Origin: Macrostomum lignano
Lineage: Eukaryota
NCBI GenBank assembly: GCA_002269645.1
Contig: NIVC01002702.1
Location: forward strand, 1-64,000
Direction of reading: 5' to 3'
Length of the DNA: 64,000 nt
The translations under genes were made by a program, and so were the position numbers. Of the stretch, positions 1-50,622 are shown piece after piece (within the stretch, counting starts at the first letter, position 1; the number at the start of each line of letters is the position of its first letter). The notes under the pieces were generated by a model, which ran no database searches, was not told the DNA's origin, and saw nothing but the letters and a program-made list of their open reading frames with translations.

Positions 1-574
1 CGAGATCAGCTAGACAAGGAGTCTGTGGAGACCTACGGGGACGAGCTGCTGGAGTTGGTGCGCAATGCCTTCCCCACCGCGGATGCCGACACCAGGACAG
101 AGCTGGCGAAAGACAGATTTCTAAAAGGCGTTCGAGTAACCGACACTGTCCGAGAAAGACTGTACCTGCAGCAGCGGGCCAACCTCACCGATGCATTCGA
201 ACAGTAAGACAACTTGAAGCAGCCCAGAAGGCGTCTTCGACCCAGTCCAAAGCCAGACCCAGGGCTGGGCTGAATGCCTTTGCCACCGAAACGTCGACAG
301 GTGACACCGGCAAAGACGAGGAGCTACGCAACTGCGTCAAAAAGTAAAAGAAAATGAAGAAAAGATCCGACGGATGGAGCAGATGCAGCAGGGCCAGCAG
401 GAGCCGCCCGAACCCGGCCTTCAAGACAAGCAACAATCCAAGCAGGCGGCTCCGTCCAGCTCGAAGCAGCGTAGCGGTGTCAAGTGCTACAACTGCGGGG
501 AGATAGGCCATCTCTCATTCCAGTGCCCAAAGCCGGGAAAAGGCAAGAGGGGCCCACCAGCTGGAGGCAAGTGA
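1..574 (+). pseudogene. gag: gag C-terminal part (capsid C-terminus, coiled coil, CCHC nucleocapsid), broken by 1-bp indels
   Basis: 25-207 reads as a capsid-like helix (ELAKDRFLKGV). 374-574 has CYNCGEIGHLSFQC (CX2CX4HX4C). Frame switches near 195, 330 and 360 would join the pieces. Confidence 0.85.
535..541 (+). promoter_or_regulatory. Candidate -1 ribosomal frameshift heptamer G GGA AAA
   Basis: X XXY YYZ pattern in the gag frame (ccG GGA AAA), just after the zinc knuckle and before the gag stop at 572-574. The -1 frame is the long open frame 484-1911. Confidence 0.55.
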
Positions 575-630
575 GCCCTGCAATTCGTCAGCCTCCGAAC
601 AAGCCGTCATCTCATCTCATCATCATCAAA

Positions 631-1700
631 CGCCCGGTACCGCATCTCATCAGCCTCCAGTGTCCGGTACTGCGCCTCATCAGAATCCAGTGTCCGGTAC
701 TGCGCCTCATCAGCCTCCAGCGTCCGGTACTGCGCCTCATCAGCATCCAGTGTCCGGTACCGCGCTTCATCAGCCTCCAGTGTCCGGTACTGCGTCTCGT
801 CAGCCTCCAGTGTCCGGTACAGTACCTCATCAGCATCCAGTGTCCGGTACTGCGGCTCATCAGCATCCAGTGTCCGGTACTGCGCCTCATCAGCATCCAG
901 TGTCCGGTACAGCGTCTCATCAGCCTCCAGTGTCCGGTACTGCGTCTCATCAGCATCCAGTGTCCGGTACTGCGCCTCATCAGCATCCAGTGTCCGGTAC
1001 AGCGTCTCATCAGCCTCCAGTGTCCGGTACTGCGTCTCATCAGCATCCAGTGTTCGGTACAGTACCTCATCAGCATCCAGTGTCCGGTACTGCGCCTCAT
1101 CAGCATCCAGTGTCCGGTACTGCGCCTCATCAGCATCCAGTGTCCGGTACTGCGTCTCATCAGCATCCAGTGTCCGGTACAGTGCCTCATCAGCCCCCAG
1201 TGTCCGGTACAGTATCTCATCAGCATCCAGTGTCCGGTACTGCGTCTCATCAGCCTCCAGTGTCCGGTACAGTATCTCATCAGCATCCAGTGTCCGGTAC
1301 TGCGTCTCATCAGCCTCCAGTGTCCGGTACTGCGCCTCATCAGCATCCAGTGTCCGGTACAGCGTCTCATCAGCCTCCAGTGTCCGGTACTGCGTCTCAT
1401 CAGCCTCCAGTGTCCGGTACAGTATCTCATCAGCATCCAGTGTCCGGTACTGCGTCTCATCAGCCTCCAGTGTCCGGTACAGTATCATCAGCATCCAGTG
1501 TCCGGTACTGCGTCTCATCAGCATCCAGTGTCCGGTACTGCGTCTCATCAGCATCCAGTGTCCGGTACTGCGTCTCATCAGCCTCTAGTGTCCGGTACTG
1601 CGTCTCATCAGCCTCCAGTGTCCGGTACAGCGTCTCATCAGCCTCCAGTGTCCGGTACAGTGCCTCATCCCCCCAGCGTCCGGTACTGCACCTCACCATC
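631..1700 (+). repeat. 30-bp tandem array (about 35 copies, CAGCATCCAGTGTCCGGTACTGCGCCTCAT) at the gag-pol junction
   Basis: 30-nt periodicity is directly visible. Two units are 2 nt short (near 1485 and 1670). Confidence 0.97.
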
Positions 1701-1810
1701 AACTAGCCGGTTTTGCACAGTCGCAGCGCCCAATCACCGTCAACGCACCTCAGTCAATTCAAATCAATCCTGCGTCGATATATGTTACGGCCTCAATCGC
1801 AGGGCGGAGG

Positions 1811-4800
1811 GTGAACGCGCTAGTGGACTCGGGAGCTTCCTGCACCATTATCTCACGGGAAGCTTACCAAAGTATGCCGAAACAGAGCGTCAGAGATTTG
1901 GCCGGTGCTGAAGGCTACGTTAGCTTAGCAAACGGCAGCCCGATCGAAATCGAGAGGACAGTCCTGTTGCGACTGTCAATCGCTGATAAAGTAATAGATA
2001 CTCCAGCCTTGGTAGTCAGCGGAGTGAAGTACCAACTGGTATTGGGATCCGACTTCTGCAGGGACAACAGTTGCGTCATCGACTACAAGACAGCTGTCTT
2101 TTCAGTGCAGGACACTGCAATCCCGTTCCGATGGCAAGCTGAGCGCCCGATCGTTTGCAGAATTTTGGCGACAAGGTCCAGCACAATACCGCCAGGTCAT
2201 CAAGCAGTGCTGTCAGCAAGGCTGGAGAGCAAAGGACGACGGAACAGAGGGTGTGTCGGTCTAACTGAGAATCTCGGGGCGAACGATTTGGCAGCTGGCC
2301 GCTGGCTTGCTAAGGCCTTAGTGATCCCAAATAGCGGCAGCCGTCTGCCGACTCGACTCATCAATATCACGGAGGAGCCAGTCAGAATTCGCCAAGGTTG
2401 TACGCTCGGGTGGTTCTGCCCCCTAGAATCCACCGAACCGTTGAACACCATCAAGCTCTTAGCCGTAGAGTCAGGAGACGATCCACAGGAAGAGCCGAAG
2501 TTCCAAGGCAGCGACAGCCCTTCGGAAGCAGACTTGCTACCAAACTCGTACGGCGACTGTGGACTGTCGACGAAAGAAGACGAAGAATTTAGAATCCTTG
2601 TCCGGAGTTACGGCGATGTGTTCACGACCAAGCAGACTTCAAGCAAGTTAACTACCGTGGTGGAGCATGAAATTAACACCGAGAATGCGCGCCCAATCAA
2701 GATCCCACCGCGTCGTCTGCCTCCCCACTTACAGCCAGAAGTAGATCGTCAAGTCAACGAGTTGCTGGAAAAGGGGCAGATCGAAGAAGCACAGTCACCA
2801 TGGTGCTTTCCTTTGGTGTGCGTAAAGAAGAAATCAGGGGAAATGAGGATGTGCGTCGATTATCGGAAGTTGAATGAGGTCACCGTCAAGGATGCAGTGC
2901 CGATGCCGAGGGTCGATGATGCGCTGGAGGCAGTACACGGCGCCAAGATCTTCTCGACAATGGACCTTCACAGCGGGTTTTGGCAAGTAGGGGTGAGACC
3001 TCAGGATCAGGACAAGACGGCGTTTGCAGTGCCGCATCGCGGACAATTTCGATGGAAGGTTATGCCGTTCGGCTTAGTGAACAGCCCAGCAACATTCACC
3101 AGGTTGATGGCAGCCGTTTTGGACAAGCAGATGTGGAAAACCTGTCTCGTCTACATCGACGATCTACTGGTTTGGTCAACCGACGTGGATGAACACCTGA
3201 GAAGACTGGAGGAAATATTCAGCAAGTTGCGGCAAGCAAATTTGTGCCTGAAGCCCCAGAAGTGTCACTTTTTGCAAAAGCAAGTGAAATTTCTCGGTCA
3301 CACGCTGTCGGCTGCTGGCATCAGTACCGATGAGGAGAAAGTTCAAGAAGTGAAGAACTGGCCAACACCGCGATCCTCGACGGAGCTGCATTCATTCTTG
3401 GGCCTGTGTGGCTATTACAGAAAGTTTATTAAAGATTTCGCCGCAATAGCAGCGCCTCTAACTCGGTTGACAACAAAAGACGCAAAGTTTGAATGGAAAA
3501 CGGAACAGCAGCTGGCGTTCGAAACATTGAAGGAACGAATGACAAGTTCAGAGGTTATGGCTCATCCGGATTTCTCCCCGGATGCCGGAGAGTTTATCCT
3601 CGATACTGATGGCAGTTCGAAGATGGGCATAGGAGCGGTACTTTCTCAAGTCCAGCCAGATGGAGCAGAACGAGTGATCGCCTATGGGTCCAAGACACTA
3701 AATCAAGCCGAACGCAACTATTGTACGACTCGTTTAGAACTACTAGCGGTTGTGACTTTCATCATGAAGTTCAGATACTATCTGCTGGGAAAAGCGTTCT
3801 GTCTGCGAACGGACCACAGCAGCCTGCAATGGTTAAAAAACTTCAGTGACGCCGAGGGACAGGTTGCTCGCTGGTTGGAGAAGTTGGCTCCATTTCAGTA
3901 CCGCATCGTTCACAGACCAGGTCGATCGCATGGCAACGCGGACGCAATGTCGAGGAAGCCAGTACGGAGACATTTCGGAGCGGAGACATGCCCGGCATGT
4001 GCGCAGCATCCAGAAGGACTAAATGCAGTCGAATTTGAACGATTCTCAGCCGGCAATCTGGCAAGCGAGCAGGATCAAGACGACGATTTGAGAACAGTAA
4101 AGGAAGCGCTTGGCTCAAACTTATTTCCAGATAAAAGCGAGACAGCTTGGAGTCCACTGGCTAGAGCCGTCTGGACTCGAAAAGACGACCTGGTGCTGCA
4201 AGAGAACGTGCTCCTTGTGAGAAACAAAGACAGGCGCGATGAGTATCAAATGGTGCTGCCACGAAAGGCATTGGATCGTATCTTGAAAACCCTACACGAG
4301 GGAGTGGGAGGTGGCCACATGGGCTTTGCGAAGACAAAATTTAAAGTGCTTCAGCGCTACTGGCGTCCAGGATTGTCTCGTGCCATTGAAGAATATATTC
4401 GCGGTTGTGCCACCTGCTGCAAGTCAAAGCCGGGCAAGCGAAACCGAGCACCCCTGCAACCGTTGACATTCGCAGCACCATTCGATTGCGTCATGATGGA
4501 CATTGTCGGGCCGCTACCGCGGAGTAAGGCTGGAAACATTTATCTCCTGACAGTCCAAGATTCGTTTACGAAGTGGCCTGACGCGTACCCGCTTCGCAAC
4601 CAGAAGGCAAGGACGGTGGCAAGGGCGCTTTTCAATCGATGGATTAGCCAGCATGGATGTCCGAGTACTTTGCACAGTGACCAAGGAAGGAACTTCGAAT
4701 CGCAAGTGATGCGCGAAATGTGCAGGATACTCGAGATCCGCAAGTCCAGAACCACAGCTTATCATCCGAGCGGAAATGGACAAGTAGAAAACTTCAATAA

Positions 4801-5596
4801 AAGTTTAAAATCCATCCTCAAGTGCTGCCTAGAGGACTCAGGACGAAACGACTGGGAAGAATTCGTCAGCTCTGCGTTAATGGCGTACCGATCAAGCGTG
4901 CATCGAGCAACGGGTTATACTCCCCACTACATGGTCTATGGCACGGAGATGCGCCTACCGATAGACTTGACTGACCAGCCGCCACAGCCTGTCGATTCGC
5001 ATGTAAATTTCGTCAAGGAGCTAGAAGACAAATTGCAGACAGCTCATCGCGCTGCTCGACAGCAGTTGAATACTTATCAGCGGCGACAGAAGGACCAGTA
5101 CGATAAAAGAACCCGAGGATCCGATATTCAGGAGGGTGACCATGTCTTCGTCTACAGCCCCGCCCTGAAACCAGACGAAGCCGCAAAGTTTCACGTAAGC
5201 TGGCTCGGCCCAGTGAAGGTGCTCGAAAGAAGATCCGAGGTGCTCTTCAAAGTGGAAAACCCGTCAAATCGTAAAAAGTCGAAGTTCGTCCACTTCAACA
5301 ACCTCCGGAAGTTCGCTCGACCGGCCGCCCTGGAAACACCAGTTAGGACCGCGGCACCGCCGGAGGTGGTCGACGAGACGGACTCGGAGACAGAGGCGGA
5401 ATGCGAGACTTGGACTCGGCCTCAACTGATGCCGCCACAGGACGCCGAGGAAGTCGCCGAGGTGCTGGAAGAGCAGATGGAGTTGGTTGACGACCCGCAG
5501 CCTACTCATAACCCGGTGGAAGCTGCACCTGAGCCTCGAAGGTCCGGAAGGTTGCGACGGCCGCCGGATCGCTACGGCCAGCCAGTGACATTCTAA
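1811..5596 (+). CDS. pol: Pol polyprotein: aspartic protease, RT, RNase H, integrase (frame is open upstream to about 1675)
   Basis: ALVDSGAS (protease); MPFGLVNSPATF and YIDD (RT); DTDGS and RTDHSSL (RNase H); H-X6-H...C-X2-C (IN zinc finger); DIVGPLP, LHSDQGRNF and GQVENFN (DDE); GPY/F-like tail. 1261 aa with no stop and no chromodomain. Confidence 0.97.
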   Translation: MNALVDSGASCTIISREAYQSMPKQSVRDLAGAEGYVSLANGSPIEIERTVLLRLSIADKVIDTPALVVSGVKYQLVLGSDFCRDNSCVIDYKTAVFSVQDTAIPFRWQAERPIVCRILATRSSTIPPGHQAVLSARLESKGRRNRGCVGLTENLGANDLAAGRWLAKALVIPNSGSRLPTRLINITEEPVRIRQGCTLGWFCPLESTEPLNTIKLLAVESGDDPQEEPKFQGSDSPSEADLLPNSYGDCGLSTKEDEEFRILVRSYGDVFTTKQTSSKLTTVVEHEINTENARPIKIPPRRLPPHLQPEVDRQVNELLEKGQIEEAQSPWCFPLVCVKKKSGEMRMCVDYRKLNEVTVKDAVPMPRVDDALEAVHGAKIFSTMDLHSGFWQVGVRPQDQDKTAFAVPHRGQFRWKVMPFGLVNSPATFTRLMAAVLDKQMWKTCLVYIDDLLVWSTDVDEHLRRLEEIFSKLRQANLCLKPQKCHFLQKQVKFLGHTLSAAGISTDEEKVQEVKNWPTPRSSTELHSFLGLCGYYRKFIKDFAAIAAPLTRLTTKDAKFEWKTEQQLAFETLKERMTSSEVMAHPDFSPDAGEFILDTDGSSKMGIGAVLSQVQPDGAERVIAYGSKTLNQAERNYCTTRLELLAVVTFIMKFRYYLLGKAFCLRTDHSSLQWLKNFSDAEGQVARWLEKLAPFQYRIVHRPGRSHGNADAMSRKPVRRHFGAETCPACAQHPEGLNAVEFERFSAGNLASEQDQDDDLRTVKEALGSNLFPDKSETAWSPLARAVWTRKDDLVLQENVLLVRNKDRRDEYQMVLPRKALDRILKTLHEGVGGGHMGFAKTKFKVLQRYWRPGLSRAIEEYIRGCATCCKSKPGKRNRAPLQPLTFAAPFDCVMMDIVGPLPRSKAGNIYLLTVQDSFTKWPDAYPLRNQKARTVARALFNRWISQHGCPSTLHSDQGRNFESQVMREMCRILEIRKSRTTAYHPSGNGQVENFNKSLKSILKCCLEDSGRNDWEEFVSSALMAYRSSVHRATGYTPHYMVYGTEMRLPIDLTDQPPQPVDSHVNFVKELEDKLQTAHRAARQQLNTYQRRQKDQYDKRTRGSDIQEGDHVFVYSPALKPDEAAKFHVSWLGPVKVLERRSEVLFKVENPSNRKKSKFVHFNNLRKFARPAALETPVRTAAPPEVVDETDSETEAECETWTRPQLMPPQDAEEVAEVLEEQMELVDDPQPTHNPVEAAPEPRRSGRLRRPPDRYGQPVTF

Positions 5597-5670
5597 TGGG
5601 TTACTCGTCATCGTGAAGTCTCATCAGTTTCATATGCGATTATCGTTAAAAGCCAGAAAAATATTTCGCG

Positions 5671-5774
5671 AATGCGTCATTCATCATAAATACGAGTACT
5701 TCATCAATGCATCATTCATCATGAGTACGAGCAGTTCGCCAATGCGTCATTCAAGAAATTCGTTAATGCGTCAT
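5671..5774 (+). promoter_or_regulatory. Cluster of AATGCGTCAT motifs between pol and the J-domain ORF (possible internal promoter/enhancer)
   Basis: Exact copies at 5671, 5741 and 5765, and a variant AATGCATCAT at 5706. The reverse complement TGACGCA is CRE/AP-1-like. Function is inferred. Confidence 0.3.
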
Positions 5775-6019
5775 TAAGTCATTTTAATCGCATCTTCATC
5801 GAAGTTTTGACGAGAATCAAATTTTGCCTACAAAATCTATGCATCGGTGGAGGGTATTTGGACTGGCATCCGGTGACAACTCGAATTTGCGCTGGGACTT
5901 TACGATGCAGGGTACCGCGGGCCACGGTCCGAGGAGATGACGCTCTGGCAAGAGGGGAGCAGGAGTAGAATCTGGAGTCAGGGACAGTGTGTTGCAGGTT
6001 TGAGTACGTTGCTTTGCAG

Positions 6020-7534
6020 ATGGATTTGTACGCTGTCCTCCAAGTCGGACACACAGCCGAACGTGCCGAGATCAGGCGAGTCTATCGACAGCTAGCGCTC
6101 TTCTGGCACCCGGACAAGCACCCGGACAAGGAACTCGCAGGACGCCGTTTCCAAGAAATTGAGGCTGCTGGTAGAATTCTATCGTGTCCATATCGCCGAG
6201 CGATGTACGACCAGTTGGGCGATAAATCAATCCCGTATGACGAGGCTGTAACCTTCGCAATGACGTTCATACCTCCTACTGGTGTAAGAATGCCGGCGGA
6301 CATCGAAGAGGGAGTACAGCAAAGGCGAGAAGTTGAAGAAGCTCAGCGCAAGGAAGCTGGTCTCAGGCAGGGGAGACAGGGACAGAGGAACGATTACGAA
6401 GCGGATGGCTACATTCTAATCTCGGACGACGATGAGAGCGAGGAGTCGGATGAGTGTAGCATCGACACAGAAGAAGAAGACGAGTTGCTGGCATCGGATG
6501 GCTCCTCCGGAAGTAGTGAGTCAGAAGCTATGGAGATCGATGTACCGGAAAGCAAGGAGGTTGTCTCACATCGCGCGTCGGGAGCAATGTGGGATGATGA
6601 AAAGCTGTCGTTATCGGCAGCTGCGCGTCAGCTCCGCCATCGTTTGATGAAGCATATTTTGGCTGGACAGTCGGACGGAATCGTGTCAGTGCTCACGGCT
6701 ATGAGACGGCTGTTTCGAGACTCGCAGCGAGAACCGAGGAGCGCACTGTCAATGGTCCTGCTGCAGGCGTTGTTCTTCATCCGCAGAGATATCGCTCCGG
6801 TAAAGCGTCAGAGAGCAGGCCGCCGTTACTGGTCTAGGCAGAGTTTTGATTGTTTCGTCCGACAGCTCTGTCACGAGCTCATCCCGCTGTTCGGTTTGCG
6901 CCGGCCCGGCAGGCTGCTCGAGGTCCTGAAAAGCTGCGTCGGTCTCCCTGGACTTCGGGTTCGCTGGGGTGCCCAGTTCCGATTCATACTGTATTTTCTG
7001 CTTACTTGTATGTATGTTGTTACGCTCGTACTGTATGGGTTTATTTGCACGCTAGTGGGGTCAAGCTTCCTGGGGGAATGGCTCAGCAGCTGTGCGGCGG
7101 CCACGTGCGCTTCCTGCCGGCTTCTGCGGCGGCCACCTGCGCTTCCTGCCGGCTTCTGCGGCGGCCACCTGCGCTTCCTGCCGGCTTCTGCGGCGGCCAC
7201 GTGCGCTTCCCGCCCGGCCATCTGCGCGCCTCGCCGGCCGCCTTCGCGTCTTGCCGGCCACCTGCGTGCCCTGTCGGCCATCTGCGCGTCCTGTCGGCAA
7301 CCTGCGTGCCCTGTCGGCCATCTGCGCGTCCTGTCGGCAACCTGCGCTTCCTGTCGGCCATCTGCGCGTCCTGTCGGCAACCTGCGTGCCCTGTCGGCCA
7401 TCTGCGCGTCCTGTCGGCAACCTGCGCTTCCTGCCCGGCCATCTGCGCGTCCTGTCGGCAACCTGCGCGTCCCGCCCGGCCATCTGCTCGTCCTGCCGGC
7501 CGCCTGCGATGGTTTTCTGTGCCGCCAGCTTTGA
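6020..7534 (+). CDS. J-domain (DnaJ/Hsp40-type) protein inside the retrotransposon: N-terminal J-domain, acidic tract, helical region, hydrophobic segment, repeat-derived tail
   Basis: MDLYAVLQV...EIRRVYRQLALFWHPDKHPDK...RRFQEIEAAGRILS...RRAMYDQLG matches the J-domain pattern with an intact HPD motif. ATG at 6020 directly follows gctttgcag. Confidence 0.85.
   Translation: MDLYAVLQVGHTAERAEIRRVYRQLALFWHPDKHPDKELAGRRFQEIEAAGRILSCPYRRAMYDQLGDKSIPYDEAVTFAMTFIPPTGVRMPADIEEGVQQRREVEEAQRKEAGLRQGRQGQRNDYEADGYILISDDDESEESDECSIDTEEEDELLASDGSSGSSESEAMEIDVPESKEVVSHRASGAMWDDEKLSLSAAARQLRHRLMKHILAGQSDGIVSVLTAMRRLFRDSQREPRSALSMVLLQALFFIRRDIAPVKRQRAGRRYWSRQSFDCFVRQLCHELIPLFGLRRPGRLLEVLKSCVGLPGLRVRWGAQFRFILYFLLTCMYVVTLVLYGFICTLVGSSFLGEWLSSCAAATCASCRLLRRPPALPAGFCGGHLRFLPASAAATCASRPAICAPRRPPSRLAGHLRALSAICASCRQPACPVGHLRVLSATCASCRPSARPVGNLRALSAICASCRQPALPARPSARPVGNLRVPPGHLLVLPAACDGFLCRQL
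7090..7500 (+). repeat. GC-rich about 20-bp modular tandem repeat (CTGCGCGTCCTGTCGGCAAC-like) in the 3' end of the J-domain ORF
   Basis: Periodic sequence giving overlapping low-complexity ORFs in all frames. Confidence 0.9.
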
Positions 7535-7752
7535 AAGCCTATTCCGTGCCCCGTGGTTGCTCCTGACGAACTCGCGTGCAGAATACTAGTACCTTTTTCA
7601 TATTTCTCTTGCGGCAACCTTTTTTTTTGCTTTTCCCTGTTGCATTAGTTTGTTCCCAATTTTTTTTGTTGTTTTAGATTTTTTTTGCTTTGTTATTTAA
7701 AAAATTTGGAATCCCAGTCGCCGTGGTTCGAGCTCCGCCCTGTTTTTTTTGT

Positions 7753-7764
7753 AGGAGGGGAGGG
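7753..7764 (+). promoter_or_regulatory. Polypurine tract (AGGAGGGGAGGG)
   Basis: Pure purine run immediately before TGTAG at 7765. Confidence 0.8.
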
Positions 7765-8660
7765 TGTAGTGCATGCGCCCTTGTCAGTTGGCAGGGCGCG
7801 TTGCACTTTGGGGCTGGTTGGGGGGGTTGGCGGGCGTGGCAGGGTCTGGCCCCGGCCGGGCTTTGCGCGTGCCCCTCCCCAGCCGTGCCCCTGCCCCGTG
7901 CTCAGGGCTGGTTGGCTGCGGCCGGGCCAGCTTTGGCGCGGGTGCAGCCCCTCCCCCCTTAGGCGGGGTTTTGATTGGCTGGGCCGGCGTGGTTTGTTTT
8001 GGTGAGCTTAGCCGGTGGGGCCGTCTGCCCCAGGGTTTGGGTGCTATTTATGGTGCGACTCTGGCTCTTGCCCGCCTCCTGCGTGCTTTTTGTGTTTTGG
8101 TGTGCTCCGAGAGTGCAAGCGCGAGACCTGATAAAAGAAACAGCAACATTAGCTACTTCGATAAAAGAAACAGCAACATTAGCTACTTGGATAAAAGGAA
8201 CACAATAGCCTAATTGAGAAGAGTCTTGGAGAATTAAGAAGAAGTCGGAAACTGCGCTTGAGACCTGCGAATAATAAACGGTGAACAGTCATCTGGCCAC
8301 TGGTAAGCCGCCTGCTGTTTGAGTCCTTTCTTTCCGGGAAGCTTGCTAGGCCGTATTCTTGCCAGAGCGTCATAACGCCGGGAGACCATATAGCTTCTGT
8401 AGTACGGTACCGTTTACCATATATATTGCGTACGCCCTACGGTATAGAGAATAGAAGCACTCGAGAGTGTCACCACACCTCGAGCCGCAGCGTGAACTCT
8501 GAGTGTCACAACACCAGAGGGATCGAATTATTATCGCAGAGCGTCGCCACGCCTGCTCGTCGTATTCATAAAAGTACAGACAGAGCGTCACAACACCTGT
8601 TATATCACATATAATATATATTGTACTCGGGACTGGGTACCCAAGCCGACCCGGGTTACA
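7765..8660 (+). repeat. 3' LTR (about 896 bp)
   Basis: Starts TGTA right after the PPT and ends GGGTTACA. Contains a 30-bp duplication at 8130-8190, AATAAA near 8273 and a TATA-like stretch near 8610. The 5' LTR is not in the window for comparison. Confidence 0.75.
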
Positions 8661-8838
8661 ACACCACCATACCCTCTCCTCCTTTCCCCTCCATACCCTC
8701 CTTAAATTTTCAACCCATTTTTTATCTCTACTCTAATTCACTAACAACTTAATAAACATTTTAAGTTTCCTGTTTACTTTATTTATTTAACAAACTAAAT
8801 TACTATATAGTATAGATAGGATGTACATGCAATTTCAG

Positions 8839-11800
8839 GGCCTAGCAACCGCATGCGAGAAGCTGAGGCTGCAAGCGCCGACTCCCCCAGCGCGCAGCAG
8901 TTTTCTCTATACGAATTTCTGCGGCGAACTTCGCTCAAAACTGGTCGCTCGCAGTGTTGAAGTAGCCGCAGTTTGGGTCCGGCTGCACCACTGCAATGTG
9001 GCCACCTTGCTATGGAGCCTGTTCCGCAGCAACGATGCTGTGAAATATATTAAGGAGCACCTGTGCGATCCCAATGTGCTTAGCAGGTGGGGCTATGATT
9101 ATCTTTGGGTTTCGGGTTTGACTTGACTCCCACAGATCCTCAGAATTGGGATGACTTGACTCCCACAGATCCTCAGAATTGGGATGACAGGCCCACAGAT
9201 CCTCAGAATTTGAGATGACAGGCCCACAGATTCTCAGAATTTGAGATGACAGGCCCACAGATCCTCAGAATTTGAGATGACAGGCCCACAGATCCTCAGA
9301 ATTTGAGATGACAGGCCCACAGATCCTCAGAATTGGGATGACAGACTCCCACAGATCCTCAGAATTGGGATGACAGACTCCGAGATCCTCAGGCATCAGA
9401 GCAGCTTCATCACTATAATACTCGTATAAGCCTCATCTCCGCGCTCCACAGAGACCCAACCTGTCCGCTGGACGCCGAACTTCGCGACCTCCTCCAGAGC
9501 CGCCTGCTGCCGCAGATGCGCGATTACTGCGCCAGCAACTTGAGCGCCGCCAGCTGCAGCCCAGCGCTGAATCAGCTGCGCCAGATCCTGGCCGAACAGT
9601 TCCAGCGCCAGCCGGACTCCAGGGCGTTGGTCTTTGTTCAGCAGCGCTGCTTTACTGGCGTGGTGAAAAGCTTTCTAGTCAGCAAGGCTGTCGAGCTGAG
9701 TACGGCCGGGGTTCAAATCGGCGTGATAACCGGCGCCAATGCTTCTGGGGACTCAGTGAGCGTCGCTAGTTTTGAAGTTTATTTAGTATTTTTGGAGACA
9801 GTAGGGGGGGGCAATGATGAGACAGAAGGGGGGGCAATGATGAGACAGTAGGGGAGCAATGATGAGACAGTAGGGGGGGCAATGATGAGACAGTAGAGGG
9901 GGCAATGATGAGACAGTAGGGGGGCAATGATGAGACAGTAGGGAGGGAAATGATGAGACAGTAGGGGGGCAATGATGAGACAGTAGGGGGCAATGGTGAG
10001 ACAGTAGGGGGGGCAATGGTGAGACAGTAGGGGGGCAATGGTGAGACAGTAGGGGGGGCAATAGTGAGACAGGAGGGGGCAATGGTGAGACAGGGGGGGG
10101 CAATGATGAGACAGTAGGGGCAATGGTGAGATAGTAGGGGGCAATGGTGAGACAGTAGGGGGCAATGGTGAGACAGTAGGGGGGCAATGGTGAGACAGTA
10201 GGGGGGGGGCAATAGTGAGACAGGAGGGGGCAATGGTGAGACAGTAGGGGGCAATGGTGAGACAGTAGGGGGCAATTATGAGACAGTAGGGGGCAATGGT
10301 GAGACAGTAGGGGGTAATGATGAGACAGTAGGGGGCAATGATGAGACAGTAGGGGGCAATGATGAGACAGTAGGGGGCAATGGTGAGACGGTAGGGGGCA
10401 ATGGTGAGACAGTAGGGGGCGATGGTGAGACAGTAGGGGGGCAATGGTGAGACGAGAGGGAGCAATGGTGAGACAGTAGGGGAGACGCCAGCTCACTAGC
10501 CGCCACCGTCACTCCAGGGCGGCATCACCCAAACAAGCCAATCGGAATTGCTAAGCCAGTTCCGCAACGGCAAGGTGCAAATCCTCATCAGCACCAGCGT
10601 CACAGAGGAGGGCCTCGACGTGCAAAAGTGCAACGCTGTTATCCGTTTCTGTCACGTGACCAACGAAATCGCTATGGTGCAAAGCCGGGGCCGGGGCCGC
10701 GCCGAGGGCAGCGTGTATCACGTGATCGTGCCGGACGAGATGAACTGGCTGGGCGATAAGGAGCGACTGAATCAGTCCAGGGACGCAATGATGACGGAGG
10801 CTGTGGCTCGATTAAACCAATTAACTGATGAACAGTTTGTTGCCAAGGTTTGTGGCATTGGAATTTCTCAGATGCCGAGGCTCTATGGGGGAAATTTCTC
10901 AGATGCCAAGGCTCAATAGGGGGGGGATTTCTCAGAAACTAAGACTTCTTTGCGGAATTTCTCAGGTGCCGAGGCTGCTTGGGGGAATTTCTCCGATGCC
11001 GAGGCTCCATGGGGGAATTTCTCCGATGCCGAGGCTCCATGGGGGAATTTCTCCGATGCCGAGGCTCCATGGGGGAATTTCTCCGATGCCGAGGCTCCAT
11101 GGGGGAATTTCTCCGATGCCGAGGCTGCATGGGGGAATTTCTCCGATGCCGAGGCTCCATGGGGGAATTTCTCCGATGCCGAGGCTCCATGGGGGAATTT
11201 CTCCGATGCCAAGGCTGCTTGGGGGAATTTCTCCGATGCCGAGGCTCCATGGGAGAATTTCTCAGATGCCGAGGCTCTATGGGGGAATTTCTCAGATGCC
11301 GAGGCTCTATGGGGGAATTTCGCAGATGCCGAGGCTCCATGTGGGGAATTTCTCAGTTGCCCATGCTACTTGGTGGAATTTCTCAGTTGCCCATGCTACT
11401 CGGTGAAATTTCTCAGTTGCCAAGGCTCAATGATGAATCCCCTCGTATCTCAGGTCTTAATGGGACTCTTAGCTGTTCTCAGAATTTTTAACTATCCAAG
11501 TTAAAATTGATCCTTAAAATGAAATAAAAATCAAACTACACGGCAGGTTCAACAAGAGCAAACTTTGTTACGCCAAGAGGCTCGCCAACAGCGCCAGATT
11601 CGCGCCGCTCAAGCCGACGCGAATCGGGGCACCGTGTTCAGCATTGAATGCGTGGGCTGCGACAGAGTGCTCACCAGCAGTGACAAACTGCGCATCGCTC
11701 AAGACTGCCATCATCTGGCTCTGGACGCTGAACTGCTGACTGACCGGCTGACGCCTAAAAAGCAATCTGCTAGCAAGAGTTTCACGAACTTCACTGCGCT

Positions 11801-13268
11801 TGGCGTGGCCCTGCTGTGCCGGTGTGGCAATCACGTGGCCAATCTGTGCCGATTTAAGGTTGGTGGTGACTCGGTCGGCATTTTGGGGCCGCTTTTGCTA
11901 GCTCGAAATCTTTTGTGACACATGCTTCATGATTAGAAAGTCAAGGGGCTGTAAGACAGTCAGATGATGCCACCAAAGGCGTTGCTCTAGGGAGCGAAGA
12001 GTGGAAAGAGAATGGAAAAGAGAAAAAGGAGAAAGGAGAAAGGAACTAGACGAGAATCAGAAAATAAAGGAGAGGAGGAAACAAGAGGAGATGAGTATTG
12101 AATAGGAGAGGAAAGAACGGAGAGAGGATAGGGAAGGAGAGAAGAGAAGAGAGCAGAGAGGAGAGAAGAGGAAAGGAGAGGAAGAGAAGAGTGGAGAGGA
12201 GAGGAGAGGAGAGAGAAGAGGAGAGGAGAGATGAGGATAGTGGAGAGGAGAGGAGAGGAGAGGAGAGGAGAGGAGAGTGGAGAGGAGAGGAGAGGAGAGG
12301 AGAGAGAAGAGGAGAGGAGAGATGAGGATAGTGGAGAGGAGAGGAGAGGAGAGGAGAGTGGAGAGGAGAGGAGAGGAGAGGAGAGAGAAGAGGAGAGGAG
12401 AGATGAGGATAGTGGAGAGGAGAGGAAAGGAGAGAGAAGAGAAGAGGAGAGAAGAGTGGAGAGGATAGGAGAGGAGAGGTAGGGATAGTGGAGAGGAGAG
12501 AAAGGGAGGAGAGGAGAGGAATGGAGGAGTCTGGCAGGAGAGGAATGGAGGAGTCTGGCAGGAGAGGAATGGAGGAGTCTGGCAGGAGAGGAATGGAGGA
12601 GTCTGGCAGGAGAGGAATGGAGGAGTCTGGCAGGAGAGGAATGGAGGAGAGGAATGGAGGCGAGGAGAGGATTGGAGGAGAGGAATGGAGGAGAGGAGAG
12701 GAGAGGAATGGAGGAGAGGAGAGGAGAGTATTGTGTATTTTTGAGCCTCCTTCATTTTGTGAATAAAATGGCGATTATGAATGTCACTGTTTCTTTTTTA
12801 GGTCAACTTTATCCTTCTTTTTTTCAATTTCAAAAGTTTAGTGCTTAAATTGAGGTCAAAACAAAAAGTTGAGTATGATATTTTAGGCCGGGTAAGGGTT
12901 AAACTCACTATCCTAATTAACTTAAAGGATGTCTAACACTTGAGGTCAAGGTCAAAGTTCAATTTTTTATGTTTCAATTGATTTCTCTTTGTTCAAGTTA
13001 AATGTTGCTACCCAATAATATTACCGTAAATCTGCAATTATGTTTTTTTCCTGATCTTATTTCAAAACAGGAACTGCCATTTCCCGAGCTGAAAATCCAA
13101 CAGGTGAAGTTTGTGGACAAAAGCAACCCAGGAGCGGTCCATGGCCCTTTGAAGAAGTGGAAACTGGCGAAAAAATTTCTCACCGAGTTGGAAATGGAGA
13201 GTGCAGACATGATCGCTTGGGCGGAAGCTGTGCCCGACATACCTGAGAATCTGCTTTCGGAAGATTGA
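8839..13268 (+). CDS. RIG-I-like receptor / Dicer-related DExD/H helicase, last five coding exons (about 8839-9086, 9377-9757, 10518-10847, 11547-11858, 13071-13268); 5' exons outside the window
   Basis: PDSRALVFV (motif IV), ISTSVTEEGLDV (motif V), MVQSRGRGRA (motif VI, RIG-I style), and a C-terminal zinc-binding domain CVGC...CHH...CRCG ending LKIQQV...KKW. GT-AG sites give consistent phases. Confidence 0.88.
9122..9392 (+). repeat. 31-33-bp intronic minisatellite (GATGACAGGCCCACAGATCCTCAGAATTTGA)
   Basis: About 8 units. The last unit overlaps the predicted splice acceptor. Confidence 0.9.
9797..10485 (+). repeat. 21-25-bp G-rich intronic minisatellite (GAGACAGTAGGGGGCAATGGT)
   Basis: Periodic, with variable G-run length. 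Confidence 0.92.
10860..11450 (+). repeat. 30-bp intronic minisatellite (GGGGGAATTTCTCCGATGCCGAGGCTCCAT)
   Basis: Homogeneous core with degenerate edges. Confidence 0.93.
12000..12725 (+). repeat. GA-rich (GAGAG/GAGGA)n polypurine tract with an embedded 24-bp repeat
   Basis: Almost pure purine. AGGAATGGAGGAGTCTGGCAGGAG occurs 5 times at about 12516-12640. Confidence 0.92.
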
Positions 13269-22394: not shown

Positions 22395-25300
22395 ATGAAT
22401 AGACTTTTTGGTAGTGGAAAGCCAAAACAACCTCCACCAAATCTTAATGATGCTGTTTCCAATGTAAGTCTATACATTTTTTACTATAAACACCTAATTT
22501 CTGCATTTTTAATCTTTTGATACAATTTATTCGACTCTATTTATCTAGATTTAAAAAACATTTTTTATACATTATTTTGTTTTCTACTTTCATTTTTGCA
22601 TTCGCGTCCAATTAATTGTGTGAAATAGATAGTTATGAACATATTTAATTTAAAATGCAAATTTAGTCAATAATTCTAAACCTATGTATGCCTTTTAAAA
22701 CTAAAGGATATAGTATAGGCTAGAGAATAAAGTAGGTATAGCCTAGGCTATAGGTAGTGTTCCACTGTAAGGAGGGTCCATGTACCATAGCCGTAGCCGT
22801 AAGCAAAACTATGGCTTATTCAATTCTCCATATTCTATAGCCATAGGGACCCTAATATAATATTACTATATTCCCGTAGTTCCCATAGCCATAGCTGTAG
22901 TTTTAATAAAAAGTCTAGAAAACAAAATATTTTAAATCAAGAAGATAACTTGGTGCTTAAACAACTGCAAATTAAGTTAGAAAATAAAAGAAACACTCAA
23001 TTGCCTTTGTAAGATTATATTTTGTCTTTTTTCAGAGCAACAATACTTAATCTTTACTGAAAATACTAATTCTGAACTTTTTTACATCAATAAAAATTAG
23101 AGTTTGCTAGTGTTTTATTGTACTTTTTTAGGTATATTTTAAAAGTTTCTAAGTTGATAATACAGTTTACTAAAAGTATCTTTGTTTTATTCTACCTGTT
23201 TCAAATATTTTTTCAATCAATCAATGTTTAACATGAATAACTCAGACTATGGGAATCTATGGAATGTGACAACAACTACCATATTTCTATAGTCATAGCC
23301 GTAAGAGCAGCTAGCTACCGTAGGCGTATCCGTAGCTGCCATAGGCACCTATTTTACCTATTTTTGCCGTAGGATCCCATAGCCATAGCTATGGCTATGG
23401 CGGAACATATGAATATAATTATGCAATGTCAATGTAATAAGTTAGTAAGCTATATGAAAATAGACTATTTTATAAGAGACTAAACACTAAGTCTTAGTCT
23501 TAGTATAAAAACACTAAGTCAAAATGTAATCCTATAAAAGTTCTTTAATTTTAAATTCTTGCAGGTATATCTTATAGGGCCTAAGCATATTAGCCTATTG
23601 CCATTATAGGCCTTATTGCCATTATGAGCCTATTATAGGCCCTAAGCATTTTAGATATTATGCCTTTTATATCAGGAAAAATAAAAAAACCAGTGTCCTA
23701 TACCTTGAGGCCTTTATTGAAACCCATTAAGATCCAAACTAAACAAAAAACCCAATTTTAAAAAAGTAAAAAGTGAAAAATCTTATGATATTGATCATTG
23801 GCCCAGCCTTTTGCAAATGTTTAATTCGATAAGCCTTAGCTTATAAATCATTGATTTTTTTATCTAAGTCAATTTGTAAATTGGGTCATTTTTGGCTTCA
23901 AGTTATATATTTGTATTTTATATAGATAACATCTCTTTTGATTTTTGTTTAAAGCCAAGGAGAAAGGTGTTTAAAAAAACCTAAGGCTAAAGTCTAGCTC
24001 ATAATATTAGAATGAATTTATACAAAAATATTATTTCTTATCCATTATTCAAATGTCTTAAACTAGTCAATAAATAGTTATATCTAGTTTTTTTAATTCT
24101 ATGGCTTTAATGATTGCTTGTAGAATTATATAGTAGCAATTTAGACTTTAAAACATCTATGATACCATAGTCAGGAAGGTGGCAATGTGCACTGGAATAA
24201 TTTTTTTGGGACAATCTATGCACCATCTATGCACCCCATCTATGCACCATTTGTGTGCCATCTGTGTGTCATCTGTGTGCCATGTCTGTGTCCTTATTTT
24301 ATGTATTTTATATAATTTATGTAATTTATGTATTTATGTAAATTATGTATTTTACAACAAGTTTGAAAATTCTTAAAATTCATGTAGACTCAATATGCTA
24401 TGCCAGTTTTATGCTAATAAAGATTCTATTCTGATTCCTTATACACCAAAGTTGTGCATAGCACTGCATATGTCAGGGACCTTATGTGTCGCATGTGCTA
24501 GGGACCTCAGTGTGCACCATGATTTGTGCACCGCATATGCCAGGGACCTTAGTGTGTGCCATGATTGTATGCCAAGTGCGCTAAGGACCCCTTGTATGTA
24601 CTATAATTTTCCATAGCAAAGGCCACCTTCCTAACTATAGATGATATACTTTATTTTTGACCTTGTCAACAGTGGCTGTGGCAACTATACGCCAATTAAC
24701 AACTATTGAAGAACCACCAGAATTTTTTTCAAAAAAATGTGTTGACTTAAAACTCAATTTTGCTTCAACGAGGTTTCTTTAGTTATGGAATAGTTTGCTA
24801 AGGCAAATAATAATATTAATTAAATTTTTTTGAAACTCAATTAAATTAGCTGAATGATTAAGCAGAGGTACTAGTTTAATAAAGTGTACATAGGATACAT
24901 GTAAAATGTGTGTAAAATGTTTCTTGAATTCATGACATTACATGTTAAGCTGTTTCCTTGTGTTTGAAGGTTTGGTTTGTTTGGTTTGGTTTGAAGAAGA
25001 TTCTGTTTTGTTGAGGAAGAAACTTATGAGTTTAACACAATCAAGCAAGTTTGGGTTAGGAGTAAAATGTGGATTTTAATTACTTAAAAATTGGATTGAA
25101 TTGAAACTTTTTTGAAACATTGATTGAAACAACATATATGAGTGCTTTTCAACTGCTTAGGTAAAAACAGCTTAAATAAGCAGAGTGTCAACTGTCAATG
25201 AGTCCTGCTATTTACTAGCACAGTCTCTATTAACGCAAAGGATCAGTCAAAAGTTAGTCACGTCAAAACTTTTTAATCTGCGCAACAGATGCTGGCAGAG

Positions 25301-28300
25301 GCGTCGCAGCTGCCAGCTCAGCAGTCTTCCTCTTTAAAACTGATTGCATAATTTGGTTTGACTCTTCTTCTTTCCTCTTTTGAATGCAATCCTGCACCTT
25401 GCGAAGCTCTTCAAGCTCATTTTTGTGCACCTTTGCTTTTAGCCAAGCTTCTTCAAGCAACAGAAGTGCAGCACTCTTTTCTTTAATTTTTTTCTCAATT
25501 TTTATTGCATTTGATGCAATATCCATTTGCAAAGAGCTGAATTGCTTGCTAGCTTTCTTTTCTGCCTCTACTTCAGTGAGCACCTCTTTTGTTAGCTTTT
25601 CATGGCACTCTCGCTTTGCTTCCACCGCCTCATCCTTCAGTCTCTGTCGGTACGCCAAATGAGCACTTGTGCACATGTTCCAGAGAGCTAAGGTGAAAAG
25701 CAGATTCGCAGCAGTCCATTTCTTTACAGACAAACAGGAACAAGTGACAATTAAGGCCTTGACAGTGAAGGGTGCCAAACTTGTCCGCTTCTTAGTAACC
25801 GTGTCCCAAACCAGACTGAAGACTCGCTCAACTTCAGTGTTCCCATGTGGGAGAACGAGAAGCGCTCTAACAAGCCTAATGAGTAGAGGACAATTACCAG
25901 CCTTGGATACAGACTCCCAAAATTCGATGACATTTGACAACTCCGACTCCGGAATCTCTGTCTGGTGTCTGTCTGGTGTAGACGCGCCTCAACTTTCAGG
26001 CTGCCAATCTCCATGTCAGCGAAAGCAAATTACATTTCCGCCATAAGGGTTGTAACCCACTTAACATAGGACGAATTACGCTGCTCCTTCAGATCCAGCA
26101 TTTTGCAGGCCTTGAGGAACTAACTCTTGAAGGGCTAGGTAGTCCCTCAGTTTTCAGTTCCAACTCGGAAGAATTTTTTCATTGCTTGAAGACACTTGCT
26201 AGTCGTCAGCAGTTATGTCAACAAACAATGGCTTTGCTGGCTCACCCATCCCAATGCTATAGGGCCCTAGCCAGACAGCTAGATCATCCAAGTTGACTTT
26301 CCATAGATGCCGCTTGGAAAGTTCGGCCAAATCTACAAATCGCAACAACCAGCGCTTCATTAAGTCTAGCATTTGACTGTGTAGGTGGTGGAGCTGGGAG
26401 CTTTCCTGCTGGAAGAGAAGCTCAAGACGCTAAAGCGGCTTCAAAACCTCTGCTATGAAGCGAAGAAAGAACTCAGTCTTTGGATCTCTCAGGGCCTTTT
26501 TTATGGTACCAGCGTGCGGCCCTGAGTCCCTACTCTTGACGTTCAGTTCCGAAAAGAACTTATCAAGCGGTGCATCTAGATAGAGCACTCGTTCAACGAC
26601 AGGCAGCACTTGGAGCCACCGGGTCTCCACAGGTCGGAGGAATGCCAGCTTCTTTATCTCACAGAAGCTGTCAGCTAGAACGTCATCAAAACCATCCGAC
26701 TGCACTGTCTTAAAGAAGGCGTAGATCTTCTTAAGCAAGCGTTCTACTGACACTCCAAGGTCGGAAGCTCCACAGGCGTATCTAGCCACGTTAGCGACAT
26801 GGTGTAAGGAACAGCCTCCTAGATCGATTAAGTTAGGAAACCCGTCGGTTTTTAGCCTAACAACTGTACCACTCTTGGCACCACGCATAGCGTTACAACT
26901 GTCACTCATAATAGAGAGACAGTAGTTGCTATTGATTCCAGACTTCAACATGGACTGACGGACGGCAGTCGCCATTGCCTCTGCTGTTGTGGACTTTAAC
27001 TCAGACAAGTCGATGCAGACCACTTTAACGTCAAGAGACGAGCTGGGCAGGAAGCGGGCAACTACTCCGAGGTATTTGGATCCTTTATTAGCCTCATCGA
27101 TTTGGAGCGAGAACCATTCAGCTGCGCGGATCTCCTGCAGCACTGCTTCTCTGATGTATGGAAACAATGCATCCCGAAGGAGGTAAGCAATCTTGCTTTC
27201 ATGGAGCTGCATACGGGGAGGAATCTTTGAATCTGGACAAATCGCAGCAATATCCTCAGCGAGATCTGCTTCTGATTCGAAGCTGCGTGCCTTGATTACG
27301 AGTCTCGTACCACATCGGATCTCAGCTGCCCGTGCATCAGCAATTGTACTGCTTGTGTCTAATGTGGTGAAAGCAAATGTATTGCCTGAGCTGGCTTCAG
27401 CAGCGCTTGTTTGGCAGCCTCTGCGTGGCTTCTAAAGTTGGTCAGGCCACTTTTGATTTCAAAAGTTTTGGCACACCAGTTGCAGCGCACTGTGCTACCC
27501 TCGCTGTCGAGCTTCTTTGCCCAGATGCCAATCTTGTCGCCATTGTTATCAATGCGCTCCAGCCAGTCTTCATTCCAAGCCACCGGTAACCTCGGGCTTT
27601 TACTTAGGCTCATGGAGGCGCTGGACTGAGTTGTCGAATGGTTGAAAGAGTCAAAAGATAAACGAAAGGTACAAGCAAACTGTACTAGCTTTCACAAATC
27701 CATAGTTGCATAGATAACACGTCTATCTCATGGTATTTATTATTAGCCGAATCCTAAAAATTTACACATTTAACAAAATAAAATGTTTGATTAAGACGAT
27801 AAAAAAACATGGTGATAGCTTCATTTTATTTAAGTACTGCACAATAAAGAATTCAATAGTCATTTATTTAATAATCATTTGTATGAAGGCCTATTACACA
27901 ACACAATTCTTTTGAAAAACTTATAAGAAGCATTTTGTTTTTTTCGCGTTCTCCATTGCCCTCAATTTTCGCGTCGGGGTGATAGAATTCGCGTATTCGC
28001 GTTATTTTCGCGAATTCGCGTCATGCCACAGCCACTAAGTAATTGTTTAAACTTAACTAGAAAATAATGAAACAAAAATAAGAAAGGCAAGAAAAAAGCA
28101 ATGCAAGTGGATAAGATAAAAACACAAAGGAGGATAAAAAACAAGCAAGTAGCAGAAGAGCAGCCAATAAGTTAGTCAGAAAAAAAGTGTAAAAATTGGT
28201 TGATACAAGGGAAGCATACACTGAATTTCCATGTCAACAGTTCTACAAAGGGAAATAGAGATGGGAATTGGATTCTAAGCTTGTCTAATCCTAAAAAGAT

Positions 28301-29165
28301 AGATTCAGACCCTAATATCAAACGAGTTGCAGTCCAATCTAATTGGACTCTCATTCCCCCAATTGCCAGATTGACAGTCGCGGCGAATCCGTGGACAAGA
28401 AAATCGCCCGCCTAGACGCTGAGCTGGCCAAATACCGGGACCAGATGAAGAAGATGCGCGAAGGCCCCTCTAAGAATCTTGTTAAGCAGAAGGCGCTGCG
28501 TGTGCTCAAACAGAAGCGAACCTATGAGCAGCAGCGAGACCAGCTGACTCAGCAGAGCTTTAATCTGGAGCAGACTAACTTCGCCATCCAGACGGTGAAG
28601 GACACCAAGACCACCGTTGAAGCTATGAAAGGCGGCGTGAAAGAGTTCAAGAAGAGCTACAAAGGTATCAACTTGGACAAGGTTGAGGATCTGCAAGACG
28701 ATCTGGAGGATTTCATGGATCAGGCCAATGAGATCAACGAGGTCATGGGCCGCAGCTACGGCATGCCAGACGTGGACGAGTCTGAGCTCGAAGCCGAGCT
28801 GGAAGCCCTTGGCGATGATATCGGAGTTGGCGATGATTCTTATTTGGATGAGGCTCTGAATGCGCCCGGCGTGCCCAGCAAGGAGCCCGGGGCTGAGAGC
28901 GCCGCTGCTGTGAGTGCTTGAGTTCAGCTTAATGGAGCAGTGAAGAATTTTAGTAAGATAAGAGTGATAGTTGCTCGTAGCTAGAGATTAGAGTAAAAGT
29001 TAGCTAGAGATTAGAGTGATTAAATCGCGAATTTAAATACACTACAGAGTAGGTAAAGACCAGAGTAGCACGTCACGTCAATACCAATAAACAATAAAAA
29101 AATTACAGGGCGATGCTCAACTGGACGAATTCGGCCTGCCGAAGATTCCAGCCAGTGCCAAGTGA
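22395..29165 (+). CDS. CHMP5: Charged multivesicular body protein 5 (Vps60, Snf7 family, ESCRT-III); exons 22395-22463, 28370-28909, 29109-29165; 221 aa
   Basis: [17 protein letters not shown] | [19 protein letters not shown]...[17 protein letters not shown] | [10 protein letters not shown]. Both introns are phase 0 and GT-AG. Confidence 0.95.
24670..28037 (-). mobile_element. hAT DNA transposon (about 3.37 kb) in CHMP5 intron 1, antisense
   Basis: TIRs CAGTGGCTGTGGCA / TAGTGGCTGTGGCA. TTCGCG subterminal repeats at 27960-28020. Internal transposase. No 8-bp TSD seen. Confidence 0.78.
25263..27613 (-). pseudogene. hAT transposase with frameshifts and stops
   Basis: BED-like finger (W...CNWC...F...H), [20 protein letters not shown] (CxxH), ETRW, and a dimerisation motif [13 protein letters not shown], split over several frames. 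Confidence 0.85.
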
Positions 29166-41240: not shown

Positions 41241-41699
41241 TCAGTGAGTACTAGTACTATTAGTAGTATGCTTGTACAATTCAAACAATTGAGCCAATTG
41301 ATGGTCGGCCAGATGATCCAATTGTTGTCGATTTAAACAGACGCCATACGAACTCGTAGAATTTTCATTAGCAACGGTTGCTATGGGAGACTGTAGACTA
41401 GCAGAGGAACCAATTGAAGATCTGTCGGCTTCTTTTAAACTGTCGCTAATCTGCCTGCTGAGCACCGAGGCGTAATCCGCCCACTGCAGCATGAACTCAG
41501 CAGCCTGCGGCTCGGTGCAGTTCAAATGCCGACGAAACTCCGCCCGAGCGTAATGGTCGCCAAGGGAACGGAGATCGCCTGGCAACGAGCGATGCAGGCG
41601 TAAAATCAGCTTGTACAGCTGACGAACCCGACTGGTGTGACTTGGACCGAACTGGGGATGGGGGAAATTATAGCTGGTTTCAAGGATTGCTGAATTCAT
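41241..41699 (-). CDS. SDHAF3: Succinate dehydrogenase assembly factor 3 (ACN9, LYR family), single exon
   Basis: RVRQLYKLILRLHRSLPGDLRSLGDHYARAEFRRH...EFMLQWADYA matches the ACN9/SDHAF3 pattern. Confidence 0.88.
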   Translation of the reverse strand: MNSAILETSYNFPHPQFGPSHTSRVRQLYKLILRLHRSLPGDLRSLGDHYARAEFRRHLNCTEPQAAEFMLQWADYASVLSRQISDSLKEADRSSIGSSASLQSPIATVANENSTSSYGVCLNRQQLDHLADHQLAQLFELYKHTTNSTSTH

Positions 41700-41715
41700 A
41701 GAGATATTGCTACTT

Positions 41716-42992: not shown

Positions 42993-43043
<51 letters not shown>

Positions 43044-43074
43044 CTCACACAGTCCCAAACGAGCAGACGGCAGC

Positions 43075-50454: not shown

Positions 50455-50622
50455 GAATATTTAATCCCTTTAGCATTGAAGCAGATTAAAAAGATTTTAA
50501 CTATACAATCCTGGGCTGATTACATATCTTTTAGCAAAAATGCAATCGAAATTGGTGAAGAATTGCAATCTCTAGTGCATTATAGACAAGCATACAAACT
50601 TTAGAGATTTAGTATACTTAGA
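50455..50622 (-). mobile_element. Second Helitron-like 5' fragment
   Basis: Minus strand starts A|TCTAAGTATACTAAA...GTTTGTATGCTTGTC. Same overall layout as 49440-49609. Confidence 0.3.

Follow-up and report, generated by a model that had tools for sequence, protein, structure and literature searches.

A J-domain protein gene conserved between pol and the 3' LTR in a lineage of Gypsy retrotransposons of Macrostomum lignano

The DNA analysed here (the window) is a stretch of 64,000 nucleotides, positions 1 to 64,000 of contig NIVC01002702.1 in the Macrostomum lignano assembly GCA_002269645.1. Pfam profiles and a reading of the LTR, PBS and PPT identify bases 1-8663 as the 3' part of a Gypsy LTR element, which carries a third gene, ORF3, downstream of pol. 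The features are the following:

1-574, plus strand: 3' part of gag with a CCHC zinc knuckle, frame-broken here; the contig begins inside gag
600-1700, plus strand: 30-bp tandem repeat in the interval between gag and protease
1589-5596, plus strand: pol, with profile matches to protease, RT, RNase H and integrase (H2C2, rve and p58 C-terminal)
6012-6019, plus strand: splice-acceptor-like YTNCAG, inferred from sequence, ending directly before the ORF3 ATG
6020-6964, plus strand: ORF3, family protein of 315 aa with J-domain, extension, acidic linker and helical domain
6023-6211, plus strand: J-domain, residues 2-64 (PF00226, E=1e-17; score 64 bits, cut-off 27.8)
6212-6394, plus strand: element-specific helical extension, residues 65-125
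6395-6604, plus strand: acidic linker, predicted disordered, 26 D/E against 3 K/R
6410-6433, plus strand: hydrophobic core and ISDD, like a phospho-type SUMO-interacting motif (SIM)
6605-6964, plus strand: basic five-helix C-terminal domain (HD), present in all families
6965-7534, plus strand: read-through tail of the window copy (hydrophobic stretch and tandem repeat), non-conserved and untranslated in most copies
7753-7764, plus strand: polypurine tract (PPT)
7765-8663, plus strand: 3' LTR, TG...CA, 899 bp, with a TATA-like site at 8045 and a G/GTAAG donor-like site at 8303
8664-8667, plus strand: target-site duplication CCAC, 4 bp

The element has the features of Ty3/Gypsy retrotransposons (Metaviridae): two LTRs with a duplication, an 18-nt PBS, a PPT, a nucleocapsid knuckle and the order PR-RT-RH-IN. 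The PBS (L031:1254-1275) resembles the tRNA-Lys primer site of HIV-1 and Osvaldo. On another contig that carries the same insertion, gag encodes 306 aa with Retrotrans_gag/PNMA-like and zf-CCHC matches. Translated, the 30-bp repeat at 600-1700 would give a long repeat of the HQHPVSGTAS type, and its length apparently varies between copies. The same insertion site was found on two other contigs, there with the 5' LTR, the PBS and the CCAC duplication. Compared with the 5' LTR of this insertion as read from another contig, the window 3' LTR has four differences over 899 positions, and because of this near-identity ORF3 is placed inside the element, as a preliminary description of this DNA had proposed from its position between the pol stop codon (5596) and the PPT and 3' LTR. 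The LTR itself had been delimited as 7765-8660; its start was correct, and its true end is three bases further, at 8663. All nine LTR pairs fetched have 4-bp target duplications, TG...CA ends and 0-4 substitutions, thus the family is very young. In the 764-Mb genome assembly of M. lignano, the ORF3 region has 24 full-length copies at 98-100% identity, and the integrase region has 28 matches spanning the whole query, one of which (C33) was seen without most of the ORF3 region.

A link of the window family to heat shock was considered and rejected, since no canonical HSE was found in 5501-8700 (the LTR included), even allowing one mismatch, and the heat-induced families described in M. lignano (PMC12801592) are different elements; the LTRs of the Gmr1/Osvaldo family reported there have 337 bp, against 899 bp here. 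On the 3' side of the element and on the same strand, 9342-11918 contains exons that encode a RIG-I-like helicase, with matches to Helicase_C at E=6.8e-14 and to the RIG-I C-terminal domain at E=1e-4; this is an antiviral sensor gene, and one of its introns may hold the element. Further along the window, an ORF resembling the C-terminus of a hAT-type transposase (25266-26043, minus strand), a CHMP5/Vps60-like ESCRT-III ORF (28343-28918, plus strand) and more host exons (41244-60378, minus strand; LYR-motif, MYST-like and GPCR-like) were recognised by eye.

ORF3 had been described as an ORF of 504 aa, which turned out to be a minority read-through form. The frame ends at 315 aa, the usual product, in 13 of the 24 copies, and a relative from outside the assembly (P0007) stops at the same position; four copies end at 344 aa in another frame, three, the window's included, read on to 496-566 aa, and four end early. 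In a hydropathy scan the best 19-residue value, 2.16, lies at residue 328 in the read-through tail; the maximum within residues 1-315 is 1.33, and this part has neither a membrane segment nor a signal peptide with a TM anchor. As the hydrophobic stretch falls outside the conserved product, the ORF3 protein is not env-like, and by its sequence the true product is soluble. The acidic tract and the basic helical region that the preliminary description placed after the J-domain lie within the 315-aa protein, and the hydrophobic stretch listed with them is confined to the tail. In the untranslated interval between ORF3 and the PPT, two families carry differing tandem repeats (window 7080-7500 and L053:4300-4900).

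Seven diverged families in the genome, with RT 51-63% identical, carry ORF3. The window belongs to F1, which has a subfamily F1b; the ORF3 of F2 has 327 aa, the frames of F3 (14 copies), F4 (15 copies) and F5 have 322, 333 and 292 aa, respectively, and F6 and F7 are longer. F6 and F7 cluster in the RT tree (98/95; 11 rows, all from this genome and one of them without ORF3) and in the HD tree (98/96). Co-location was examined between the best 150 of 4373 RT candidates and 135 ORF3 loci, chosen from ORF3 searches after removal of host DNAJ genes and weak J-only hits. Among these best 150, an ORF3 lies at most 10 kb downstream (median 3.3 kb) in 100 of 121 RT hits of the lineage, so the expectation that the J-domain ORF is retained behind pol was borne out; the three nearer RT groups have it in 26/31, 48/56 and 26/34 hits and the next group in 0/29. 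No upstream RT among the same best 150 of 4373 was found for 35 of the 135 ORF3 loci. In a family with RT 54% identical (L072, C23:263700-266000), no ORF3 was recognised in the interval of about 1 kb from pol to the PPT, and the gene may have been lost there.

A database protein labelled M. lignano matches the window ORF at 99%, and the F4 protein is present in NCBI as host 'hypothetical' gene models. Several public M. lignano models named 'J domain-containing protein' (P0002, P0009, P0013-P0015) are fusions of element pol and ORF3 and not host chaperones. Three of four database relatives were searched against the assembly and gave best matches of 56%, 45% and 39%; with such low identities, the ORF3 gene exists in other organisms or populations. 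No named taxon besides M. lignano was found among the ORF3 database relatives.

HPD-bearing J-domains deliver clients to Hsp70. That ORF3 has a PF00226 J-domain with intact HPD was proposed previously and holds, with the HPD at residues 30-32 (6107-6115). AlphaFold models the J-domain and extension (residues 1-125) with confidence, the acidic linker as disordered and the HD as five helices; the predicted J fold aligns with DnaJ domains to within about 1 Å, the best solved matches being DNAJB2, DNAJB3/HCG3, DnaJ and Ydj1. As to the class of the donor, the top scores span classes within 3 bits. PF00226 was the only match in the window ORF, and the G/F region and the C-terminal client-binding domain of Hsp40s are absent from it, again in agreement with the preliminary description. 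The HPD is present in six of the seven families (F1-F6), and the HPD together with the basic residues of helix II is kept in these 6/7 families and in 3/3 J-bearing relatives from outside. The J-like domain of F7 scores 22.5 bits, under the PF00226 cut-off, and nine F7 copies have an open frame of 571 aa without HPD. Since F7 is multi-copy and lost the HPD yet keeps the ORF, Hsp70 recruitment is not the sole job of the gene. In a tree against host DNAJ genes, a comparison that the preliminary description had suggested, 11 element J-domains fall together on one side of a 96/96 branch with four host J-domains on the other, which is consistent with a single J-domain capture.

The linker contains a hydrophobic core followed by a run of S/D/E in 10 of 14 linkers (0-25% of shuffles per row), a pattern composed after the motif was seen and favoured by acidic linkers as such. 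The ISDD-type motif sits at different positions in otherwise unalignable linkers and is invariant in a six-row alignment of F1, F2 and F6; it is lacking in F4 and F7, is only approximated in F5 and is partial in P0005. It resembles SUMO-interacting motifs of the PML/Daxx type and is a candidate SIM. The genome has an intronless SUMO gene with seven matches (C1551, C1565, C2589 and C2596), in inverted pairs on three contigs.

The HD is net basic in 7/7 families and was modelled alone by AlphaFold with pLDDT 90 and pTM 0.83. It matched no Pfam family and no solved fold: Foldseek found nothing at E<=0.001 among PDB structures or viral models, the best hit of a wide fold search (Z 7.9, rmsd 2.1, 79 aligned) is at the background level of helical bundles, and a sequence search against PDB returned only designed helical proteins. 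A word search with residues 150-315 found no homologue among 2580 candidates; a full HMMER search gave five hits and a profile search of longer proteins 2 of 8000, both labelled M. lignano. No relatives were found in viral or metagenome contigs. A lead to DnaJ-X (PF14308; Atlas 0.76) was rejected on a profile-profile probability of 0.1%, no hit at E<=10 in 12 HD rows and no genome match. According to these searches the extension and the HD are found only in these elements, and because the HD is without known relative its target is a guess.

Three families have an additional domain. In F4 it is a chromodomain (PF00385, E=1.5e-12), for which Swi6 and HP1/CBX are the best matches among solved structures; of the three presumed aromatic-cage positions, the first two are kept and the third is Val. 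F6 and F7 have a TatD-like fold (PF01026, E=1e-8 to 4e-5; Atlas 0.93, 30/30 hits TatD). Assuming the TatD metal ligands to be HxH, E, H, H and D, the domain retains the GE glutamate, has other residues at the later His, His and Asp positions and a reduced HxH, and the fold is probably inactive. Several copies of an F6 subfamily (L060 rc 3036-3578 on C150; also C222 and C2475) keep only the C-terminal part of the TatD-like domain, with J-domain and HD deleted, and yet have spread.

ORF3 is an old accessory gene under purifying selection in one Gypsy lineage. Nei-Gojobori counts made with our own script, several of them with dS near saturation, gave for the window against F1b a dN/dS of 0.09 in the J-domain, 0.13 in the linker, 0.23 in the HD and 0.17 overall (95% interval 0.10-0.24). 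An F2 pair gave 0.22 for ORF3, with 0.13 for its RT and 0.28 for its integrase; F2 against F2b gave 0.07-0.18 and the window against F2 0.36. The TatD-like part gave 0.15. Diverged pairs within F1, F2 and F6 range from 0.07 to 0.24. Near-identical pairs carry no selection signal: L053/L066 gave 2.2 on eight changes (seven replacement, one silent) and L058/L067 gave 0.68 in the J-domain. The preliminary description had suspected a captured J-domain and had named retention and dN/dS below 1 as checks; the seven families, the HPD in six of them and these values support the capture of a J-domain as a retained, selected accessory gene. Moreover, ORF3 is exchanged as a module, since F1b shares its integrase but not its ORF3 with F1: identity falls from 93-98% in the integrase to 62-77% past about 5690, and dS rises from 0.20 to 1.3.

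The signals around ORF3 suggest how it is expressed. A YAG lies 0-16 nt ahead of the ORF3 start in 7/7 families; a YTNCAG is found in five of the seven and directly before the ATG in three (chance about 6e-6 and 8e-4 on the assumption of independent families, which does not hold). The G/GTAAG site is present in LTRs of F1, F3, F4 and one F2-type element, and in 9 of 10 fetched 5'-end loci of F1, where no ATG occurs between the TATA region and this site. Two F6 copies have no Met ahead of the J-domain. ORF3 is probably made from an env-style spliced mRNA that joins the LTR donor to the acceptor before the ATG. None of four deleted or interrupted copies examined as possible spliced retrocopies joins at the acceptor, and in contigs from three presumed-RNA runs and one presumed-DNA run, which span this stretch, neither a joint nor a loose end falls at the acceptor. 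The YTNCAG also fits the acceptor motif described for SL trans-splicing (PMC8629364), and cis-splicing is the simpler option because a donor-like site lies upstream in the LTR. Of the env position previously assigned to ORF3, the place is confirmed and the splicing probable; an env-like protein is not encoded, the hydrophobic stretch not being conserved.

We propose, with a probability of roughly 0.45, that ORF3 works in the nucleus as an adaptor and delivers Hsp70 to silencing complexes. A spliced RNA joining the 5' LTR donor to the acceptor just before the ATG would express a soluble class C J-protein adaptor, whose J-domain, judging from the HPD and the fold, would recruit and activate host Hsp70. 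Targets might be chosen by the SIM-like motif, which could bind SUMOylated proteins, and in F4 by the HP1-type chromodomain, which could bind H3K9me; these client-selecting parts would therefore point to the nucleus. The basic HD, and in F6 and F7 also the probably inactive TatD fold, may contact nucleic acid. Once delivered to the SUMO/H3K9me silencing complexes on the chromatin of the element, Hsp70 would loosen them, in analogy to polyomavirus T antigen, which applies its J-domain to pRb-E2F. In favour of the adaptor, F4, which is without the SIM-like motif, has the chromodomain, and F7, which is without the HPD, is also without the motif. SUMO-dependent recruitment of SetDB1 is described as silencing transposons in Drosophila (10.1101/533091) and SUMO-dependent SetDB1 silencing as acting on mammalian ERVs (PMC13108219); both this recruitment and H3K9me have a central part in the silencing of transposons. 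Of the three roles raised in the preliminary description (particle assembly, Pol folding and evasion of silencing), the last fits the SIM-like motif, the HP1-like chromodomain and the basic domain best, and the data suggest that these elements may recruit a host chaperone to undo their own silencing. More tentatively, and with the odds somewhat against it, ORF3 could be a chaperone-recruiting anti-silencer with interchangeable readers (SIM, HP1 chromodomain and dead TatD), in which the J-domain makes Hsp70 dismantle the complexes. The main difficulty for any Hsp70 model is F7, in which Hsp70 recruitment would be dispensable.

Alternatively, ORF3 could act in the cytoplasm and supply Gag particles or Pol with Hsp70, whether in assembly, in uncoating or in activation of RT. 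The J-domain, when intact, is the most constrained part (dN/dS 0.09), the basic HD could bind genomic RNA, and the use of Hsp40/Hsp70 by viruses in assembly and RT activation is established; however, such a role leaves the HP1-like chromodomain of F4 and the SIM-like motif unexplained, and the exchange of ORF3 between subfamilies argues against a tight pairing with its own Pol. We consider it unlikely. Still less likely is an adaptor for integration or nuclear delivery, which would anchor the pre-integration complex on chromatin that is SUMOylated or H3K9-methylated, with Hsp70 releasing or remodelling it. Chromodomains steer integration in chromoviruses; here the chromodomain is on ORF3 and not on the integrase, and a TatD-like fold could hold cDNA ends. 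Nevertheless, ORF3 is swapped relative to the integrase, and the window copy is found within or next to a host gene and not in obvious heterochromatin. The conservation of HPD and helix II basic residues in 6/7 families and 3/3 outside J-bearing relatives makes it a little more doubtful again that the protein works independently of Hsp70, the J-like module and extension being a scaffold and the HD doing the work, for instance in RNA export or transactivation, as the many open F7 copies that keep the scaffold without HPD, and the HD in 7/7 families, might suggest. The idea that ORF3 is a neutral passenger, or a piece of a host DNAJ gene captured in a single event, for which one could cite the 11 of 24 window-family copies that deviate from the 315-aa form, is refuted by selection and co-location, with seven families, dN/dS of 0.07-0.24, the 96/96 J branch and relatives outside the assembly.

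Polyomavirus T antigens have an N-terminal J-domain with HPD, followed by a short motif and an acidic tract that choose a nuclear Hsp70 client, and ORF3 shares this layout. It differs in that LxCxE is absent from all 14 ORF3 rows, in its other C-terminal domains and in belonging to a retrotransposon and not to a DNA virus. With cellular class B and C J-proteins ORF3 has the J sequence and fold in common, but it lacks the G/F region, the zinc finger and the beta-sandwich client domain of cellular Hsp40s, and its HD is not homologous to the DnaJ-X (PF14308) of Djp1/Caj1-type proteins. VANC of the Arabidopsis VANDAL elements is a transposon anti-silencing protein. We know of no anti-silencing protein of the VANC or CERV type that uses a J-domain. 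Like VANC, CERV of C. elegans Cer1 is described as an element-encoded accessory protein that overcomes host chromatin or RNA control (PMC10309623).

Additional ORFs are known in plant LTR elements (PMC7264820), and an extra gene in this position is of a known kind. The env genes of errantiviruses and other Metaviridae (PMC7879559) also lie between integrase and PPT with signals of the spliced-subgenomic type, but ORF3 is a J-domain adaptor without surface or TM domain, and the profile given there names only gag, pol and env. The ORF3s of bdelloid rotifer LTR elements, a GDSL esterase and a DEDDy exonuclease, are likewise captured cellular domains, modular and family-specific, and are described as typically spliced (PMC5408684). 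DEDDy and TatD are both 3' exonuclease folds; the rotifer proteins, however, retain their catalytic residues, and the TatD-like domain of the present elements is without most metal ligands and fused to J-domain and HD. An AlkB m6A demethylase ORF in orchid Ty3/Gypsy elements (PMC9289625) is also a host domain that became fixed and may counter host control, but it is an RNA enzyme in plants and no co-chaperone. The J-domain ORF3 seems to be an undescribed variety: our literature searches turned up no LTR element with a J-domain gene, and Repbase, Dfam and GyDB, the 2020 species LTR classification and bioRxiv supplements may hold such annotation. In the accessible main text of a survey of M. lignano LTR elements (PMC12801592), DnaJ, ORF, TatD and chromodomain are unmentioned, and DnaJ has no mention in the accessible main texts of this and six other papers (PMC6338049, PMC13524379, PMC7264820, PMC5408684, PMC10468722 and PMC8775202).

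These results add a helical domain without known match and warn that some M. lignano host models named 'J domain-containing' are transposon genes. Selection maintains ORF3 in seven families that continue to multiply, and for their host worm RNAi, transgenesis and stem-cell assays are available. To our knowledge, few counter-defence proteins of animal retrotransposons have been identified. If the anti-silencer reading is true, it would be a retrotransposon counterpart of the T-antigen strategy, directed against the piRNA/heterochromatin defence of an animal. The families form a series in which the HPD is kept or lost and SIM, chromodomain and TatD are added; therefore, the fight of animal LTR elements against chromatin silencing becomes directly testable, as does the question of whether Hsp70 can be turned against chromatin silencing.
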